This document shows, piece by piece, positions 6,846-39,906 of a stretch of DNA of 64,000 bases. The DNA comes from Escherichia phage 172-1, in sequence record NC_028903.1; one strand, 5' to 3'. Each line of letters opens with the position of its first letter. Positions within the stretch are counted from its first letter, which is position 1. A program made the position numbers and the translations under genes. Below the pieces are notes generated by a model that saw nothing but the letters and a program-made list of their open reading frames with translations, did not search any database and was not told where the DNA came from.

Positions 6846-6876
6846 GGATGTTTCACGTCATCGCTGACTTGTGCTC

Positions 6877-6904
6877 ATTATAGGTTAGGCTTTCCAGTTG
6901 TCAA
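6877..6904 (-). promoter_or_regulatory. sigma70-type early promoter P2 (TTGACA-N16-TATAAT)
   Basis: Perfect consensus hexamers; -35 at 6899-6904, -10 at 6877-6882 on minus strand. Confidence 0.7.
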
Positions 6905-6943
6905 ATACTTTTTCAAGTATTTTTTCACTTTCTAGCCTGATTT

Positions 6944-6953
6944 TTAAAGAGCG
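6944..6953 (-). promoter_or_regulatory. boxA-like element (CGCTCTTTAAAAA)
   Basis: Inside repeat copy A. Confidence 0.4.
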
Positions 6954-7092: not shown

Positions 7093-7173
7093 GCTCATTA
7101 TAGTTCAGGCTTTCCGGCTGTCAAATACTTTTTCAAGTATTTTTTCACTTTCTAGCCTGATTTTTAAAGAGCG
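7093..7173 (-). repeat. ~81 bp direct repeat copy B (promoter P1 plus AT hairpin plus boxA)
   Basis: Near-identical to 6873..6953. Confidence 0.8.
7097..7124 (-). promoter_or_regulatory. sigma70-type early promoter P1 (TTGACA-N16-TATAAT)
   Basis: Perfect consensus hexamers; -35 at 7119-7124, -10 at 7097-7102 on minus strand. Confidence 0.7.
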
Positions 7174-7510: not shown

Positions 7511-7876
7511 CTATGGATTTACACATTGACCATTACCGGACTCAATTTCATTCATGGACTCATCAAAGAGCGTCAACGATGAGCGCATCAAGTGATTGAC
7601 CGTGATTTGTTTACCAGTGATTTCATTTACCAGTAAAATAGTTTTACTATCTGATTGCACATGATCAAAATCATTTACATGCAAAATAATAACCTTAGGT
7701 GACTTTTTACCGGTTTCATAGTTTTCTATAAGGTAGGTACATTGCAAGCCGTCAACCGTAGCAGGGGAAAACGTTGCAGCCTTAACGCTACCCATAGCCG
7801 ATAACAGCACACCTAACAGAAGAATGACCAGAAAAAAGCCTACAACCGTTTTAATGACGAATCTAATAAACCACAT
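7511..7876 (-). CDS. secreted early protein (signal peptide)
   Basis: 121 aa; N-terminal hydrophobic segment followed by AxA-like cleavage region. Confidence 0.5.
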   Translation of the reverse strand: MWFIRFVIKTVVGFFLVILLLGVLLSAMGSVKAATFSPATVDGLQCTYLIENYETGKKSPKVIILHVNDFDHVQSDSKTILLVNEITGKQITVNHLMRSSLTLFDESMNEIESGNGQCVNP

Positions 7877-8082: not shown

Positions 8083-8334
8083 TCACCATTTTGGCAGATC
8101 ACAATCAAGAAGACCAGCAAGCGACAAATCACCGTCAACATAGATCGAACGAAAATCATCGCGATTAATATCAATGCGCACCAATTGGAGCCATCTTTTG
8201 GCCTCGTTAAAACTCATGGAACAAAAGGCAACGGTAGGCAGTATTACGCTACCTTCTTTCAAGCCGAACGAGATAAAAGTATCACAAACAAAACAAGAAA
8301 CACCGCTGGATAATTTGATCACTTTGTTACTCAT
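8083..8334 (-). CDS. hypothetical protein
   Basis: 83 aa ORF in operon. Confidence 0.4.
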   Translation of the reverse strand: MSNKVIKLSSGVSCFVCDTFISFGLKEGSVILPTVAFCSMSFNEAKRWLQLVRIDINRDDFRSIYVDGDLSLAGLLDCDLPKW

Positions 8335-8363
8335 TTTTTTGTTACTCCTGAAAAATAGGTTAT

Positions 8364-8855
8364 TTATTTACTGGCCTTGATGCAGTTGGCTAAATTAATG
8401 TGAACGGTATAAACAGCGTTATCAGCGTTATTGTAAACAGTAGTCGCAATCATCGACTGATTAACCGGGCCATAACTGACCAGATTCGTGACAGCTTTCG
8501 CATGGCTGTAACGTTGTACAGTGCCATACGTCACCATATCCGCATCGTTATCAGTACGCTTGAGAACTAGATCACTGTTAGACTGATTGTCTAGTGTTTT
8601 GGTACTAACGACCAGACCATCACGGGAAACGTTACTAAATTTAACCTTTAAAACGACCTGATTGGTGTCACTATCAGCACCATTGCAAATCATCCAACCT
8701 TTATTGATGGAACTAACGAAGACACTAGCCGCATCAGTTGCAGGAGCAGGACTAGCAACAGCCTTATCAGGAAAGGAAGTTACCAGCGCACTAACACCGA
8801 TCGCGGCGACTAGTGCATAACTTGCCAGATTAATCATCTGCATTGGTTTAGTCAT
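8364..8855 (-). CDS. secreted early protein (signal peptide)
   Basis: 163 aa; N-terminal MTKPMQMINLASYALVAAIGVSALV... signal-like segment. Confidence 0.5.
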   Translation of the reverse strand: MTKPMQMINLASYALVAAIGVSALVTSFPDKAVASPAPATDAASVFVSSINKGWMICNGADSDTNQVVLKVKFSNVSRDGLVVSTKTLDNQSNSDLVLKRTDNDADMVTYGTVQRYSHAKAVTNLVSYGPVNQSMIATTVYNNADNAVYTVHINLANCIKASK

Positions 8856-8890
8856 TTGTGAAGCCTCATTGATATGTAATAGATAGGGAT

Positions 8891-8919
8891 ATAATAGGAC
8901 ACGCTTTCTTACATTGCAA
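8891..8919 (-). promoter_or_regulatory. sigma70-like promoter (TTGCAA-N17-TATTAT) for operon 8855..7511
   Basis: Hexamers read on minus strand ~30 nt upstream of start. Confidence 0.5.
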
Positions 8920-9154
8920 CCATCTTCCTAACTTTCTTTCTTTCTACTAAAAGTAGCGCCATTGAACTTACTAGTCCTATTTCTTGGGCTTAACTTGCTA
9001 TCAGTGAACGATTCGACTACTTCACAAACGATCAGAACAAGTAAAGGAAATACTACAGCCATTGCCATCATTATTAAGATAATCATTTCTATCACTTCAA
9101 TCACTCAATCAATAGGCTTCAATTTACTACTACTTAACAAGGAAGACAAGCGAC

Positions 9155-9222
9155 CACGGGTAAACTATTTCTACTATATAGGACGGGGCATACAACAACC
9201 GCAGAACAGACCACGGGGAAAC
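9155..9222. repeat. three CACGGG(G)-core direct repeats (~28 bp period)
   Basis: ccacgggtaaac, gacggggcatac, ccacggggaaac read in sequence. Confidence 0.5.
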
Positions 9223-9565
9223 ATAGCAAGATAGTGCGGTAATAATATACCACTTAAATAATTGTATAACTCAAACATCAAAGATCATTCGCTACGCTCA
9301 TGCACGCTGAAAAAGAAAGTAATAAAAGAAATAATAACATACATCAATCATTATCCACTTAATTAATACATACATCATTATTGCACTCATAATAATAACT
9401 ATTGAAACTATTTACAATCAAACTATGGGGGAAGTGGGTAGTAACTAGGGGGTATTATTAGCCTATTCATAGTGCCTTAATCTGATTGCTATACAGTGAC
9501 TAGCCTTTCACTCACTCTTTAAAGGGGAACTAAATAAACGGGTAGGTAATGAATAGGATGGTATA

Positions 9566-9605
9566 CACGGGGAAAGAATAACGGGGAGTAGGCACGGGGA
9601 AAGGT
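9566..9605. repeat. three tandem ~14 bp repeats (c)ACGGGGA(AAG)
   Basis: cacggggaaagaat / aacggggagtagg / cacggggaaaggt. Confidence 0.55.
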
Positions 9606-9787
9606 TGGAACGTGGAAGGAGGTGTAAAGGCATTGCCAATAACCATTTTTTATTTGAGGACTCCCCCTTTTTAACAATTCGCCGCAGAGCGCCCAGCCCC
9701 ACTCGGTCAAATCAGAATTTTAAACAGATATATACATCTTTATTTTTTATAAATCTGTATTTTAAACTGTTATATATAAGGTTAAGT

Positions 9788-9949
9788 ATGAATCTAATTA
9801 AAGTATTTAGACGGATGAAGTGTAAGCACAATTACTATCTTCTTCGTAAAGCTTACGGGGATGAAAGGATACATGGTTTGTACCTATCAACATGGAAGTG
9901 TAAGGAATGTGGTAAGTTGAGATTCAGTACATGGGTGGATAGGCCTTAA
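9788..9949 (+). CDS. small zinc-ribbon-like protein
   Basis: 53 aa from ATG 9788; CKHN...CKEC motif pair. Confidence 0.35.
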   Translation: MNLIKVFRRMKCKHNYYLLRKAYGDERIHGLYLSTWKCKECGKLRFSTWVDRP

Positions 9950-9954
9950 CATGA

Positions 9955-10050
9955 CATGGCCTTTATGAGAGTACCCTTTACTTCAGAGTACACGGGTTGT
10001 TGGTATGAGGGTGCCTTTACGGGTTGGTCTTATGATGTGCCCTTTATACT
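9955..10050. repeat. iteron-like direct repeats TATGA(G/T)nGTGCC(C)TTTA(C/T) x3-4
   Basis: Copies at ~9964, 10004 and 10031, with a partial copy at 9955. Confidence 0.5.
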
Positions 10051-10168
10051 TTTATTCAGAGGATAAGAATATGAGGTTTTTAAAAGAACTACACTCCTTG
10101 ATTTATAAGGACATAGTGTACTCAGTATCCCGCAATGCATGGTTCTACCAAAAAGGTGGCAACGGTGA

Positions 10169-10459
10169 ATGGGTAGATTGAATCTTACTCAGAGGAGAAG
10201 AATTATGAATTTAGTATTAGACTTTTTATCAGAGATGGTGCCTCGGTTCAGAACGGAGACATACGCTTTCGTAGTCAACAGTGACTCTGAAGATGGGATG
10301 GAAGCTACGTGCTTAGGTCGTCTTGTTGATTTAGATGATGAAACAGGTTTCGATATTACAATTGATGTGAGTAGCTTAGGTTGGCTCTTCTTCAGAGCAT
10401 TCCGCACTTACAAAGTAGAAACATATAAAGATTACAGTAAGGGAGATACAGATGAATAA
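10169..10459 (+). CDS. hypothetical protein
   Basis: 96 aa; alternative start at 10205 has the better GAGGAG RBS. Confidence 0.4.
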   Translation: MGRLNLTQRRRIMNLVLDFLSEMVPRFRTETYAFVVNSDSEDGMEATCLGRLVDLDDETGFDITIDVSSLGWLFFRAFRTYKVETYKDYSKGDTDE

Positions 10460-11015
10460 TTTAATCAAAGCGATGGACCTTAACGAGTATAATTCACAGC
10501 TATGTCGCTCTGGTTGTAGCTTACAGCATTTAGAAACTATGGGAAACATCTCAGGATTGGCTGTACAAGATTTGTATAGTGGAAGTATTCTTAAACCAAA
10601 TATTACGGAGAACAAAAACATGTTAGATTTGATTCATACTACTCGCCCTAATTCTAAAACACAACCATCTACTCTGGAAGTAGTTGAATACGAATCTACT
10701 AAACATGACCACCTCCCTGACTATGCTCGTGCAATGATTGAGATGATTGAAGAAGCTGAATATGAAATGCTCCATGATTACATTACCTCCAAAGATGAAT
10801 GGCATCGTGATGTTCGAATTGAAGAAGATGGTACAGAAACAATTACGTGGATTCACAAGAGTGAGTTAGTAGACGACGCACTGCGAGACTACGAAAAATT
10901 TTTGGTCGACGGCTCTATTCTTTTAGAGGAAGAGAAGGGTGTAGAACTTCCGTGGGAGGGTGAGGTAGTTACTTTAGGTAAGATGTTTAACCTGTCCGTT
11001 GGTGATTGTAAGTAA
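10452..11015 (+). CDS. acidic hypothetical protein
   Basis: 187 aa, D/E-rich. Confidence 0.45.
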   Translation: MNNLIKAMDLNEYNSQLCRSGCSLQHLETMGNISGLAVQDLYSGSILKPNITENKNMLDLIHTTRPNSKTQPSTLEVVEYESTKHDHLPDYARAMIEMIEEAEYEMLHDYITSKDEWHRDVRIEEDGTETITWIHKSELVDDALRDYEKFLVDGSILLEEEKGVELPWEGEVVTLGKMFNLSVGDCK

Positions 11016-11071: not shown

Positions 11072-11545
11072 ATGTTTGGAGAAAACGGAGAACTCACACC
11101 TGCACAGGTAGCTGAGATTACAGGAAGATTACCCGGAGTAACGGAAGAACTTGAAAGCCGTGGTATGAACCCAAGCAATGGGAAGTTTCAAAAGGGAAAT
11201 AAATTCGGACGACCCAGAGGTAGTAGAGGTAAACTGACACAATTAATGTTGGACCGTGTTGCTGCAAGTCATTTGTCTCCTGATGAAGTGTTAATTCAAA
11301 TTTACGAAGATCCTAATATTCCACCTGATCTTAGATTCAAGGCTGCATCAAAAGTTGCAGATCTGGTATATCCTAAGGCGGCCTCTGTTGAAGTTAAGAT
11401 TGAGGAAGAGAATGTAATTAACGAAGAATCATTGAATGCACAAATCAAGGACTTCTTGACTGGAGCACTTGGTATCGATGTTATGCCTCCAGAAGAAGAC
11501 AACTCTGAGGACGCTGAAAAGGGGGAGGAAGCGGACGAGAGTTAA
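11072..11545 (+). CDS. putative terminase small subunit (position-based)
   Basis: 157 aa, directly upstream of large terminase; basic mid-region and acidic C-terminus; no definitive motif. Confidence 0.3.
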   Translation: MFGENGELTPAQVAEITGRLPGVTEELESRGMNPSNGKFQKGNKFGRPRGSRGKLTQLMLDRVAASHLSPDEVLIQIYEDPNIPPDLRFKAASKVADLVYPKAASVEVKIEEENVINEESLNAQIKDFLTGALGIDVMPPEEDNSEDAEKGEEADES

Positions 11546-11706: not shown

Positions 11707-13248
11707 ATGTCATTAGATAAACAAATTTATGAAGCTCTAACTGGTAACAATCTTAGTGTAGACGAAAAGAAAGCACTATTGAATATGTTGAAAGAGCGTG
11801 ACCAATGGAGGAAGTATAATAGGATTTTGTCTTTCAAGGCGTATGACTTCCAAAAGAAATTTTATGCAGCAGGATTGAAGCATCGCTTTAGATTCTTGTG
11901 TGCAGCGAACCGTGTTGGTAAATCTTATAGCGAGGCATACGAGTTTGCTTGTCATGTCACAGGTCGCTACCCAACTTGGTGGACAGGATATAAATTTAAA
12001 AGACCTATCTTAGCATGGGCAGTTGGTATTACAGGGGATTCCACAAGGAAGGTATTGCAAAAGGAATTGTTTGGTACACCTATCGGAAAGGATACAAATT
12101 TATTAGGGACAGGTGTCATTCCTCGTGATGCTATCGTCATTGATACGATAGAACGAGATGGTAACAAACTTCAAATCGTACAAATCAAACATCAAAATGA
12201 GAGAGGAGAGTTTGACGGTTTAAGTACATTAGAATTCCGTTCAACCCAACAGGGTGAACACACATTGATGGGTGCAACAGTTGACTATATATGGCTTGAT
12301 GAAGAGGATCCATATGAGTCTATGGCTATATTCGCACAGTGCGTCACACGTACACTCACAACTAAAGGTCTAGTTACAATTACAGCTACACCAGAGAACG
12401 GTTTAACTGAACTGGTAGATAAATTTATGAAAGGTGAAGGGGATGAGAACACAGGTTCTCTATATTTCCAGAATGCTTCTTGGTGGGATGCTCATGCAGA
12501 CCTAGGTGGACACATCACTGACCAAGATATAAAAGATATGACTGAAGGTATTCCAGCATGGCAGTTAGAGATGCGTTCAAAAGGTATGCCATTGTTAGGA
12601 AGTGGTTTGATATATGATGTATCGGATGACACAATTAAATGTGAACCATTCGAAATTCCTGATACGTGGAAACGTGTCTGTGCAATTGATATTGGTATCG
12701 ATCACCCAACTGCTGCTGTTTGGACAGCTTACGATGCAAACACGGATACTATCTATGTTTACGACTCATATAAAGAAGGTGGCTTTACTCCAGTGTATCA
12801 TGCTCCAGCTATTAATGGTCGTGGTCAGTGGATTCCTGTCATCCTACCGCATGATGCGGACAATACTGAGAAAGGTAGTGGTTCATCTGTTGCTCAATTC
12901 TATAAGAATGCAGGAGTTAACGTACAGAGTGAGACCTTCTACAACAAAATTGGAATGGATGGTAAAAAGAACTTCTTTGTAGAACCGGGAATCACAGATA
13001 TCCGAGAAAGAATGATGAGTGGACGCTTTAAAGTCTTTAACACAGCCGCTAACGCTAAGCTATTCGAAGAGAAAGCTAGATATCACCGTAAGGTTGGTAA
13101 GATTATTAAAGAACATGATGACTTAATGGATGCAATGCGCTATTCAGCGTGCTCTGTTACACATCGTGGTCGCTCTAAGCATGATGTTAGCTACGGAAGC
13201 GCTTCTTTGTATGAGGCAAACGTAAGCAGATGGAATCAGAGCTACTAA
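11707..13248 (+). CDS. terL: terminase large subunit
   Basis: 513 aa; Walker A-like AANRVGKSY, Walker B-like IWLDEE; precedes portal. Confidence 0.85.
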   Translation: MSLDKQIYEALTGNNLSVDEKKALLNMLKERDQWRKYNRILSFKAYDFQKKFYAAGLKHRFRFLCAANRVGKSYSEAYEFACHVTGRYPTWWTGYKFKRPILAWAVGITGDSTRKVLQKELFGTPIGKDTNLLGTGVIPRDAIVIDTIERDGNKLQIVQIKHQNERGEFDGLSTLEFRSTQQGEHTLMGATVDYIWLDEEDPYESMAIFAQCVTRTLTTKGLVTITATPENGLTELVDKFMKGEGDENTGSLYFQNASWWDAHADLGGHITDQDIKDMTEGIPAWQLEMRSKGMPLLGSGLIYDVSDDTIKCEPFEIPDTWKRVCAIDIGIDHPTAAVWTAYDANTDTIYVYDSYKEGGFTPVYHAPAINGRGQWIPVILPHDADNTEKGSGSSVAQFYKNAGVNVQSETFYNKIGMDGKKNFFVEPGITDIRERMMSGRFKVFNTAANAKLFEEKARYHRKVGKIIKEHDDLMDAMRYSACSVTHRGRSKHDVSYGSASLYEANVSRWNQSY

Positions 13249-38400: not shown

Positions 38401-39906
38401 TTTATTAACACCTATAACAGAGAAGTGAATGCCTTCAACAAAGCTAACAAGAACTCTCAATACGAAGCTGCTGCTAAACACTTGCAGGCTCGTGAAGAAC
38501 GTCTTGCTACTCTGAGAAATAAAGCTCAGGCTCGTTCAGATGCTAAAGCTGCTGTTGAAAATGAACGTAAAACTCTAGAGGCTATTGCAGCTCAGAAGAG
38601 TGAGATTGAGAAGATGATGGAAGGTTTACCTAAGCCTGTTCGTGAAGCTCAGGAATCTCGTACATTGAAACAGTTGGCTGCTCACCATGATAAGAACTCT
38701 CCAGTTCCTCCAGAGAAGTTCCGTAGTTACATTGAACGTATCCATAACGCCGAGTCAGATTACCTTGACCGTCAGCGTCGTTTAACTGATGCAGAGGAAG
38801 ATGCTCGTCAGGCTAAGTGGAATAAGATGTATGAGCAAGCGGAAGAGATGGACCGTAAATTTGATATAGACAAAAGAGTTAAACGCAGTGAAGAGCTTAA
38901 AGCGGCTCAGAAGCGTGAGAATGATCTCATGGCAGTACAACGTCAACGTGACGACATTCATCGTCGCCTGATGCATACTTTGGAAGATAAAGGCATATCT
39001 AAAGAGGATGCTGAAGCATTTGCTGGTTCCTACATGGATAACCGTTATGCACTTCTTGATAAGCCTATGACTCCTACTGAACATCAGAATGCTCGTTCTC
39101 GTATCGAAGCTGATGTTGAGAAGTTTGCTAAGAAGTACGAATCAATGACCCCTATCGAGAAAGAGATTGTTAAGATTACTGGAGATACTGAAGGTAAGCT
39201 TGATAACTTGGATGCGGATACTAGGAAGGCTGTTGAGGAGGCTCAGAAGGTTGACTCTGATATTAAGAAACTGCAAGAGGAAGAGTTGGAGATGGAGAAG
39301 ATTCGTTCTGCTCTGCCTGACGATGAAAAATCTCAAGCAAATTCTGATATCTTGGAAAGTATTAAACAGCAGGAAGAAGTCTTTGCTGATAAAGTAGAGA
39401 AAGCTTTCTTGAGTGGGAAGAGCTTGGATGAGTTGGCTAGTGTGGCTGAAGTTTTAGACAGGGTTCATGGTGCAGACAAGGCTGGTAACAACCGTCGCTT
39501 TGTACGTGCATTGCAGACTGCTGCTGAAAACAAGAAGAAGTATGGTGATAATCCGGTAGCTTGGTTTAGTGCTGATGATTATTCTGCTATTGCTAAACTT
39601 GGTGCTTCTTCCGCAGGTGGTAACAAATCTAGAGCACTGGAGAAGATCTTTGGTTCTACAGCTGAACAAGCTAAGAGTAAGTTGCTTGGTAGGGATGATG
39701 TAGCGAAGATGAGACGTGTAATTGAAGAGAACCCTGATGTTAAGATTCCTTCTTACAAGACAACGAATCGTACTGAGTACTTGCAGTTCTTGGAGAAGTT
39801 TAATGACGAAGGGAAGCCGAAGATTAAACGTGGCTCATTGTCAGAGAAGCTTGAACGCAGTAAGCGTCAATCGAGACTCCGTGTAAGAGTTCGACCTAAG
39901 GAGTGA
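35485..39906 (+). CDS. large virion protein (~1470 aa; ejection/internal protein or tape-measure-like)
   Basis: Start placed at ATG 35485 with AAGGAG RBS; track start 35440 lies inside the promoter motif; A/E/K-rich with long helical regions. Confidence 0.5.
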   Translation: MANIKPWEEASKAPAYLNASPEQQAQMREQYKAAGGSIPEEQPVAQPQQEERGVIGEFAQGVSNALQSGGANIAASAAKGIGGLVEIGENLAGAQTSYGKRIQENSQNLLKERMDKIEDGIGKTAGQYAGVVGDIGLTVANPLAAAAIIAGRETGRAYADQTPEEGEDKSVLDAALVGGANYAAQRILPGAVGTAESTLGRIGQNVASNAVAGAKGGALVGAAEAQNKHGDDTTFANVLEGAIEEGAMGAAFGGAVGGVHGLISRPDSTVFKNTPEYAKTDIAADDELIRSAKNVDELKEAYSKAETANAASALNLLDENGFRITDAVAVDSPAAQRILNTDQARAEKAASAQKEHSNIPGLNPLASPAKVRGKAFADNEHNQKQAVAMKDAMADYTKDNTKALTDVLDNLDRELTSLRASGHFTGSPLDVKNRTQADRDFIDAYKTFYNEANRFKARDGEDFNNFVEKAAELQKMADNVSPEMKKAIGGLKKLKGMPEGFNPIQDAYTLNNTAKFMSNQDRGWTSLTDDGFRETSSPSLVMNTLGAAKYAINRFSSQRARSQRVKQQEANSEAIRSLARGDLEVARAKSTADEARAKMEEEPVVDDIKFKTQNDVETEPVREPSSSTVTEENLPSSAPQESPLTARDLVAQRRAIRQAEQRRAEEEAAAAQEAPVEQAPQAEPLPARNPLEERRAMEQQRAQEEAAQAPEPTVEEPTAKAEPLPARAPKAPEEAVQDVKPESGIEYLAAMSSTARQVARDRATRFAKSLYSKAAKAKATAENFLAYKGDPLELMRRIRREDNAINTERHEEMARNQLASQQGIATAKNNTVRTNFAEWVKERGLPEDIATKALRAEEKGLGGNVTNLDSLKRRAERLYQKQREDEFDRLYQEALEENKAFDKKDAPKLVDQKKELQSEIDTLIDSEPLRPAQKDAMRKLMNDYVDGKFKSSEKAGREEALEVGQMKDVWDGFINTYNREVNAFNKANKNSQYEAAAKHLQAREERLATLRNKAQARSDAKAAVENERKTLEAIAAQKSEIEKMMEGLPKPVREAQESRTLKQLAAHHDKNSPVPPEKFRSYIERIHNAESDYLDRQRRLTDAEEDARQAKWNKMYEQAEEMDRKFDIDKRVKRSEELKAAQKRENDLMAVQRQRDDIHRRLMHTLEDKGISKEDAEAFAGSYMDNRYALLDKPMTPTEHQNARSRIEADVEKFAKKYESMTPIEKEIVKITGDTEGKLDNLDADTRKAVEEAQKVDSDIKKLQEEELEMEKIRSALPDDEKSQANSDILESIKQQEEVFADKVEKAFLSGKSLDELASVAEVLDRVHGADKAGNNRRFVRALQTAAENKKKYGDNPVAWFSADDYSAIAKLGASSAGGNKSRALEKIFGSTAEQAKSKLLGRDDVAKMRRVIEENPDVKIPSYKTTNRTEYLQFLEKFNDEGKPKIKRGSLSEKLERSKRQSRLRVRVRPKE

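Follow-up and report, generated by a model that had tools for sequence, protein, structure and literature searches.

What is the purpose of the long gap between the two gene arms of Escherichia phage 172-1? In the 64,000-nucleotide stretch of this phage analysed here (sequence record NC_028903.1; hereafter the window), a leftward group of small genes and a rightward arm are separated by DNA that carries short G-rich repeats on one strand and a very AT-rich segment. An earlier note, made from the letters alone, had taken this for a divergent intergenic region in which repeats flank an AT-rich core, and had read it as an iteron-type origin of replication or as operator arrays controlling divergent transcription. 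According to our analysis, the region is almost certainly the junction of two physical chromosome ends of a Kuravirus, as it would stand in an assembly that is circularised or permuted, or in a replicative concatemer. The best explanation overall, to which we assign a probability of roughly 0.55 when it is weighted to its mechanistic part, is that the elements of this junction guide terminase cutting and packaging.

The sensitive similarity search was run with the 935-bp gap alone. In linear records with physical ends (phiEco32, SU10, YF01 and IMEP8), the match reaches to within ~20 bases of the last base and recurs at the opposite end; in the YF01 record, positions 1-193 and 78434-78626 are annotated as 'direct terminal repeat' (DTR). 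The homologous stretch of the window (Table 1) aligns with zero gaps and is identical to the DTR of phiEco32 at 158/193 positions and to that of YF01 at 172/193. The ends of the repeat, which itself has been known since 2008, have been determined experimentally in phiEco32 (by restriction profiling, primer walking as well as sub-cloning), YF01 (by full-length nanopore reads) and Paul (by PhageTerm) (PMC9965538; also PMC4281155). The DTRs of these phages and of SU10 are homologous to the window sequence over 193 bp, ungapped and 82-89% identical, and have the same placement, with right-arm early genes on one side and left-arm terminase and structural genes on the other. In the window, the homologue lies between the leftward right arm and a rightward arm that starts a few small genes before the genes of the small and large terminase subunits (TerS and TerL). 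The difference is that the repeat stands at the record ends in the mapped relatives, whereas here it occurs once, in the middle of a permuted sequence. Since the window holds one copy of the DTR, the assembly is permuted or circularised, like the record of NJ01.

Megablast with positions 8300-10500 matched 86 phage records; two of these are named just 'phage', and the rest belong to Escherichia or Shigella phages. The nearest relative was NJ01 (92% identity), the record of which is assigned to Caudoviricetes, Gordonclarkvirinae and Kuravirus, the phiEco32-like group. Judged by these matches, the window phage is a Kuravirus close to NJ01. An early guess, that of an N4-like phage with hairpin promoters, was dropped on the taxonomy of the Kuravirus records. 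The map of open reading frames (ORFs) also fits a Kuravirus, with small leftward genes up to 8855 and a rightward arm from 9788 that leads to the putative TerS (11072-11545) and TerL (11707-13248).

With the repeat in this position, the right end has its non-coding tip at ~9150-9501, and the DNA to the right of the DTR is the start of the left arm toward the terminase genes. The closely spaced motif copies at 9566-9605 are inside the DTR and are therefore predicted at both ends of the virion DNA, and the position of the DTR places the three distal copies and the AT-rich block at the right end alone. The arrays thus flank the AT-rich core in the window, as the earlier note had it, but the arrangement in the virion is not a simple flanking. 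The arms do diverge, but the conserved 51-aa ORF at 8928-9083 lies inside the region, and the region is intergenic in the circularised map alone. Early genes have been reported at both chromosome ends (PMC4281155).

The boundaries of the DTR share a sequence that is a candidate for terminase cleavage (a caret marks the predicted cut). The left boundary reads ...CT^(A/G)GCCT(T/C)TC in most of 24 genomes and AT^AGCC in YF01, EC.W2-6 and Bas91, and the right boundary reads ...CT^AG(C/G)(C/T)(C/A)CA in the relatives. Shared sequence at both cut sites would be expected if one nuclease cuts both. From boundary to boundary, the distance is 192-194 bp in the 16 genomes of type I (the types are defined below) in which both boundaries could be located. 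In type II the boundaries stand 205-206 bp apart; for type III and for ECBP2 the figure is 249 bp. These distances predict terminal repeats of 205-206 bp in Bas89, EP335 and KBNP1711, and of 249 bp in Bas87, TH34, PAS59 and ECBP2. For PAS59, an annotated 275-bp 'repeat_region' was rejected, as it disagrees with the conserved boundaries and has the look of an overlap left by assembly. The terminal repeat of SU7 has been published as 53 bp by PhageTerm, a value that its authors themselves considered doubtful.

Near the right boundary, the 19-mer TGAGGACTCCCCCTTTTTA is identical in all junction types compared, the exceptions being TH34 and EP335, with one or two substitutions. Published descriptions of the DTR give its length and a 'highly conserved region ~130-170', to which this 19-mer corresponds (PMC9965538). 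A scan of IMG/VR with the 19-mer returned 6 loci, mostly known isolates.

The G-rich motifs form two arrays on a single strand. The + strand holds 7 copies of ACGGG between 9150 and 9605, where 0.15 would be expected from a Poisson model (P ~3e-10, or ~1e-7 once all windows and strands are corrected for), and the - strand of the same stretch holds 0. This is the densest ACGGG cluster of the window, in which any other 456-bp stretch holds at most 2 copies on either strand. The same asymmetry is seen for G-runs of at least 3 bases, 11/11 of which lie on the + strand between 9158 and 9599, and no C-run of at least 3 bases is found from 9100 until 9663. The three CACGGG(G) repeats at 9155..9222, to which the earlier note had assigned a ~28 bp period, are present with core spacings of 27 and 30. 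In the array within the DTR, the copies stand at offsets 21, 37, 66, 80 and 93 from the left boundary (spacings 16, 29, 14 and 13). The last three of them (CACGGGG at 9566, aACGGGG at 9580 and CACGGGG at 9593, spacing 14 and 13) had been described as 14-bp tandem repeats at 9566..9605; the copies are real, but the 14-bp tandem unit is not. Tandem Repeats Finder made no call on them, because the common unit is a core of 5-7 bp and the spacers vary. The copies AAGGGGA (9522) and ACGGGTA (9538), together with the G-runs at 9427-9452, widen the pattern beyond that first description.

To assess conservation, the junction was aligned from 21 genomes, which are 63-88% identical to the window there. 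The AYGGG cores occupy homologous positions, in the same number and always on the + strand, among 20+ relatives down to ~63% identity; a check of repeat phasing in relatives, which the earlier note had proposed, thus came out in favor of the repeats. Core columns have a mean majority frequency of 0.88 compared with 0.68 for the spacer columns of the arrays (Mann-Whitney P=8e-6, a value that is indicative, given that the sequences are related). This conservation supports the view that the repeats are functional elements and probably bind protein. Also conserved are GTGCGGTAATAATATACCACTTAAATAATT (9234-9263), ACGCTGAAAAAGAAAG with variable AAAAGAA-type units, the block 9354-9431, and CACTCGGTCAAATCAGAATTTTAAAC..TTATATATAAGG. 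With most relatives, homology starts at ~9183-9195, within the distal array, and the DNA to the left, including the rightmost genes, differs. This indicates that the module goes with the chromosome end and not with a gene or promoter. In the distant relatives Salmonella phage 7-11 and Cronobacter phage GAP52, no homologous arrays were found.

A second repeated element accompanies the arrays. The window has just two exact copies of CCACTTAAWTAAT (the type I box CCACTTAAwTAAT), at a distance of 105 bp, and the box form switches in both copies together across lineages (CCACTTAA, CCAATCwAA or CCAGTCwAA). The number of A-tract units is variable, and for this reason the box-to-box distance ranges over 105-133 bp.

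Based on the boxes and the G-motif, three types of junction were distinguished. Type I (the window, phiEco32, NJ01, YF01, Bas90-94 and others) has boxes CCACTTAAwTAAT and mostly ACGGGG; type II (Bas89, EP335 and KBNP1711) has boxes CCAATCwAA and ACGGGG; type III (Bas87, TH34 and PAS59) has boxes CCAGTCwAA and AYGGGTA in both arrays. CGGGG cores account for 0/9 copies in type III versus 5/8 in the window (Fisher P=0.009). A natural mosaic was also found: ECBP2 (NC_018859) combines a right-end module of type II, with boxes CCAATCwAA and a distal ACGGGG array as in Bas89 and EP335, with a terminal repeat of type III, the DTR array of which has the AYGGGTA form of Bas87 and TH34. Its breakpoint falls in the poorly conserved stretch ~9430-9500, and the hybrid shows that the two modules are recombinable. 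The joint change of both boxes and both arrays is the pattern expected of sites that are read by a co-evolving sequence-specific protein.

The proposed role in packaging can be outlined as follows. Concatemers would carry one DTR per junction, as in T7-type phages. The terminase would recognise the junction via its conserved elements and cut at both of the CT^AGCC-like sites; duplication of the DTR would leave one copy at each end of every packaged genome. The arrays and boxes would act as protein-binding landmarks that place and orient the terminase, in a role like that of cosB, pac or the T7 repeats SRL and SRR; their reader may be the small terminase or another phage protein. The array within the DTR starts 21 bp from the left cut site and spans offsets 21-99, so that repeated elements lie within ~100-200 bp of the cleavage site, as at cos and pac. 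For the narrower claim, that the arrays serve as end-recognition or packaging signals, we see about an even chance.

Several observations weigh against this role. The termini of this phage were placed by homology to mapped relatives, and the packaging role of the Kuravirus arrays rests on sequence comparison. Across the junction types, the putative TerS keeps at least 90% identity throughout and has no clear co-variation with the motif flavour: the TerS of ECBP2 is closest to those of two type III phages (97% and 96%), but those of the other type III phages are no nearer than those of type I. From this constancy it follows either that TerS reads the invariant GGG core or invariant elements alone, or that the motifs are read by another protein. 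ECBP2, in which a type II right-end module is joined to a type III DTR, is viable, which means that the arrays need not match or that the reader accepts both forms. The distal array is ~300 bp from the closest cut site, farther than typical cosB or pac elements. Finally, the function of the analogous repeats of T7 is, to our knowledge, itself unproven.

The packaging role could be extended further, to a Kuravirus junction that is a modular strand-specific recognition system, made up of the AYGGGKA arrays, the co-evolving boxes and the CT^AGCC sites, read by a phage protein, and existing in at least three specificity types with one viable hybrid. We put this forward tentatively and regard it as rather unlikely in that complete form.

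The closest parallel is found in T7. There, CCTAAAG occurs on one strand only, with three copies in the 160-bp repeat (positions 17, 41 and 60, all in its first 66 bp), an array with a 13-bp period right after the left repeat (175-334) and copies before the right repeat at 39671 and 39700. We take these CCTAAAG arrays to be SRL and SRR, the short repeats that Dunn and Studier are said to have described in 1983; packaging of T7 was reportedly found by Chung and Hinkle in 1990 to depend on junction sequences. The two systems share a short core (5-7 bp) confined to one strand, which recurs early in the repeat and in the unique DNA beside it with a period of 13-14 bp or its multiples; in both, the repeat boundaries resemble each other in sequence, and promoters and AT-rich DNA are close by. 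They differ in the sequence itself, which is unrelated (ACGGGG here versus CCTAAAG in T7), and in layout: the T7 arrays abut both sides of the repeat, whereas here there is none to the right of 9694 and the outer array is ~300 bp off, on the far side of an AT-rich block that has a second, co-varying box element. The Kuravirus arrays are therefore an analogue of the T7 arrays, not a homologue.

The R sites of lambda cosB, the pac hexamers of P1 and pacL/pacR of SPP1 are terminase sites with repeated elements. Common to them and the Kuravirus junction are several short repeats at most ~100 bp from the cleavage site, bendable A-tract DNA between elements, and further elements on the other side (compare cosQ and the 4+3 hexamers of P1). 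Those systems, unlike the present one, give cohesive ends or headful cuts and not exact terminal repeats; in addition, an IHF site is absent here, and TerS shows no clear co-variation with the motif.

The AT-rich core raises the question of whether the locus is instead an origin. The segment 9230-9420, called very AT-rich in the earlier note, indeed has 26.7% GC compared with 42% for the window, which places it among the lowest 0.4% of 191-bp windows. An initiator might bind the AYGGGKA copies, the CCACTTAA boxes or both, or a promoter in the block might prime synthesis, with melting at 9230-9430, so that an origin would lie beside the right end. This agrees with the direct repeats beside an unusually AT-rich segment in the iteron origins of plasmids and lambda-like phages, with the variable A-tracts between two co-varying boxes, and with the conserved AT-rich block and boxes, whose role is otherwise not obvious. 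The sigma-70-like hexamers on the - strand of the conserved block (9421-9389) are reminiscent of T7, in the origins of which promoters precede AT-rich DNA, but such matches occur in the block at the frequency expected by chance or in shuffled sequence of its composition. The cumulative GC-skew has its minimum at ~9350-9450; this switch coincides with the switch in transcription direction and is thus not independent evidence. Phage GAP52, with five DnaA boxes in the equivalent non-coding DNA between its arms, offers a precedent for an origin at this position, and no Kuravirus origin was reported in the literature searched.

The repeats, in turn, are unlike iterons: what is conserved is a unit of 5-7 bp, spaced at 13-16 or 27-30 bp, which is unphased and far shorter than helically phased iterons of 17-22 bp. 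One array is within the DTR and would hence be duplicated at the far chromosome end, remote from the AT-rich block. The IHF consensus is absent from the locus, the one near-match to a DnaA box is at chance level (the window holds 59 at that stringency), and the eight flanking proteins, which were the ones searched, match no known-initiator family. Thus, the AT-rich element of the iteron-origin proposal was upheld, but the phased repeats, the initiator and the DnaA and IHF sites were not found, and we consider an origin here unlikely, although a reading to be kept in mind.

Side observations were made in the two distant relatives. The five DnaA boxes TTATCCACA of GAP52 (NC_019402; four on the + strand and one on the - strand) lie within 190 bp at 443-631, in a 1.7-kb non-coding stretch upstream of the small-terminase homologue. 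They mark a candidate DnaA-dependent origin or DnaA-regulated region, and nothing equivalent was seen in Kuravirus or 7-11. In Salmonella phage 7-11, 4-6 one-strand copies of ATCAGTG(T) are found at ~1556-1660, within ~140 bp of the start of the small-terminase homologue, and a run of nine G at ~1079, in a long non-coding stretch upstream of that gene; the repeat sequence is unrelated to the Kuravirus arrays.

Could the arrays belong to transcription control, as operators or activator sites for early promoters at both ends, or as pause or termination signals across the junction? In SU10 and phiEco32, the rightmost gene has published early sigma-70 promoters, and others have been proposed upstream of the first coding sequence (CDS1); an invariant promoter-like element stands directly to the right of the DTR, and TAATGAATA at 9547 is one mismatch off the phage-sigma element tAATGTAtA. 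In T7, pausing of RNA polymerase at the junction has been linked to DNA maturation. Set against this, the motifs are asymmetric and one-stranded, with >100 bp between them and the promoter-like elements (8891-8919 and 9700-9785); the distance of the module is fixed to the DTR and not to the leftward gene, which many relatives have replaced; near-consensus sigma-70 promoters (TTGACA-16-TATAAT) are located at ~6.9 and 7.1 kb; and no regulator gene was identified among the nearby proteins. For these reasons, the proposal of operator arrays for divergent transcription did not hold up, and we judge transcription control in any of these forms improbable. A promoter for the phage sigma factor (gp36) within the DTR was also considered and rejected, as one-mismatch matches (22 versus 20.9 expected) are at chance level. 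At the site of TAATGAATA (9547-9555), relatives show AAATGTATA (Bas92/94) or TAATGTATT (XT32).

A structured non-coding RNA, or a DNA hairpin or cruciform such as would be used in hairpin-primed repeat duplication, appears very improbable. A weak terminator-like hairpin on the - strand (9216-9199) and an imperfect inverted repeat (9577-9589 / 9660-9672) could be cited in its favor. Yet the GGGGAGT arm of that inverted repeat is missing in type III DTRs, the DTR folds worse than its shuffles (z=+2.17), and neither the AT-rich block (z=-1.55) nor the right boundary folded as DNA (z=-0.41) is significant. Rfam returned no family and ARAGORN no tRNA.

Table 1. Features of the predicted chromosome-end junction in the window.
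Feature	Positions	Strand	Basis or remark
Rightmost leftward gene	8364-8855	-	ORF map
Sigma-70-like promoter TTGCAA-17-TATTAT, ahead of gene 8364-8855	8891..8919	-	consensus match alone
Small hydrophobic ORF, 51 aa	8928..9083	-	phrog_7482, E=4.6e-14
Distal array: CACGGGt 9155, gACGGGG 9182, CACGGGG 9212	9155..9222	+	core spacing 27, 30
Distal array as AYGGGKA	9156, 9183, 9213	+	right-end unique DNA, 288-345 bp before terminal repeat
Box 1, CCACTTAAATAAT	9250..9262	+	fixed 33-34 bp past last distal motif
Invariant ACGCTGAAAAAGAAAG, then AAAAGAA-type A-tract units	9305..9337	+	unit number variable
Box 2, CCACTTAATTAAT	9355..9367	+	second copy of box element
Highly conserved AT-rich block, ACATACATCATTATTGCACTCATAAT...ATTGAAACTATTTACA.TCAAACTATGGGG	9368..9431	+	alignment of relatives
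Poorly conserved spacer before terminal repeat	9432..9499	.	ECBP2 mosaic breakpoint inside
Left DTR boundary CT^AGCC, predicted cut between 9501 and 9502	9500..9505	+	candidate terminase cleavage sequence
Homologue of the 193-bp DTR, single collapsed copy	9502..9694	+	ungapped alignment
DTR-internal array: AAGGGGA 9522, ACGGGTA 9538, ACGGGGA 9567, 9581, 9594	9522..9600	+	conserved in relatives
19-mer TGAGGACTCCCCCTTTTTA, 22-40 bp before right DTR boundary	9655..9673	+	near-invariant
Right DTR boundary CC^AGCC, like left boundary	9693..9698	+	
Promoter-like left-end element CACTCGGTCAAATCAGAATTTTAAAC..TTATATATAAGG, directly outside DTR, duplicated (42 bp) here	9700..9785	+	invariant in relatives
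First left-arm gene, 53 aa, CxxH...CxxC	9788..9949	+	phrog_7696

Among the features on either side of the junction, the promoter-like match ahead of the rightmost leftward gene sits where SU10 has a published early promoter of its rightmost CDS, and the S2 table of SU10 lists a 'potential sigma-70 promoter' upstream of CDS1. The left-end promoter-like element (AAATCAGAATTTTAAAC..TATATA) is tandemly duplicated with a 42-bp period (copies at 9709-9734 and 9751-9776) in the window, NJ01 and O18-011 and is single in seven other aligned genomes. Farther to the left, an 81-nt direct repeat (6873-6953 and 7093-7173) has copies that are 95% identical and 220 bp apart. Each copy holds a near-perfect sigma-70 promoter on the - strand, TTGACA-16-TATAAT, with the inverted repeat AAATACTTGAAAAAGTATTT ahead of it, and these probably correspond to the strong early promoter cluster reported between CDS120 and CDS121 of SU10.

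The 51-aa ORF is present in NJ01_011, O18-011, MN05 and Bas93/94 and absent from phiEco32. The CxxH...CxxC pattern of the 53-aa first left-arm protein may be a zinc ribbon; ECBP2 has a near-identical protein despite its other repeat type, so the protein does not track the motif type. The eight nearest flanking proteins belong to PHROG families of unknown function or with inherited labels, and no significant Pfam domain was found in them. Several small ORFans by the junction (7511-7876, 8083-8334 and 10452-11015; NJ01_006/007/009/015) bear implausible names inherited from RefSeq or PHROGs, such as 'terminase' for 121 aa, 'polymerase' for 83 aa, 'ABC transporter' for 187 aa and 'cathepsin L-like proteinase' for 55 aa, and no Pfam domain backs the ORFan names near the junction.

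Overall, our analysis indicates that the proper annotation for this locus is a terminal-repeat junction in a permuted Kuravirus assembly (predicted termini 9502 and 9694), and that it should not be labelled an origin or an ordinary divergent promoter region. The literature searched, which did not include the two primary phiEco32 papers (Savalia 2008; Pavlova 2012), describes neither the arrays and the box pair nor the shared boundary sequence, the three variants or the ECBP2 hybrid. The result is incremental and not surprising. For phages with short exact terminal repeats, end recognition and duplication are understood in outline only, chiefly from T7 and T3, and the elements listed here are concrete and cheap targets for mutagenesis and binding work in a group that is in use in therapeutic phage cocktails. 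If the modular recognition system is real, Kuraviruses would be a second tractable system, with natural variants at hand, for the one-strand short repeats of the T7 type, and could show a packaging signal and an origin combined in one end module.

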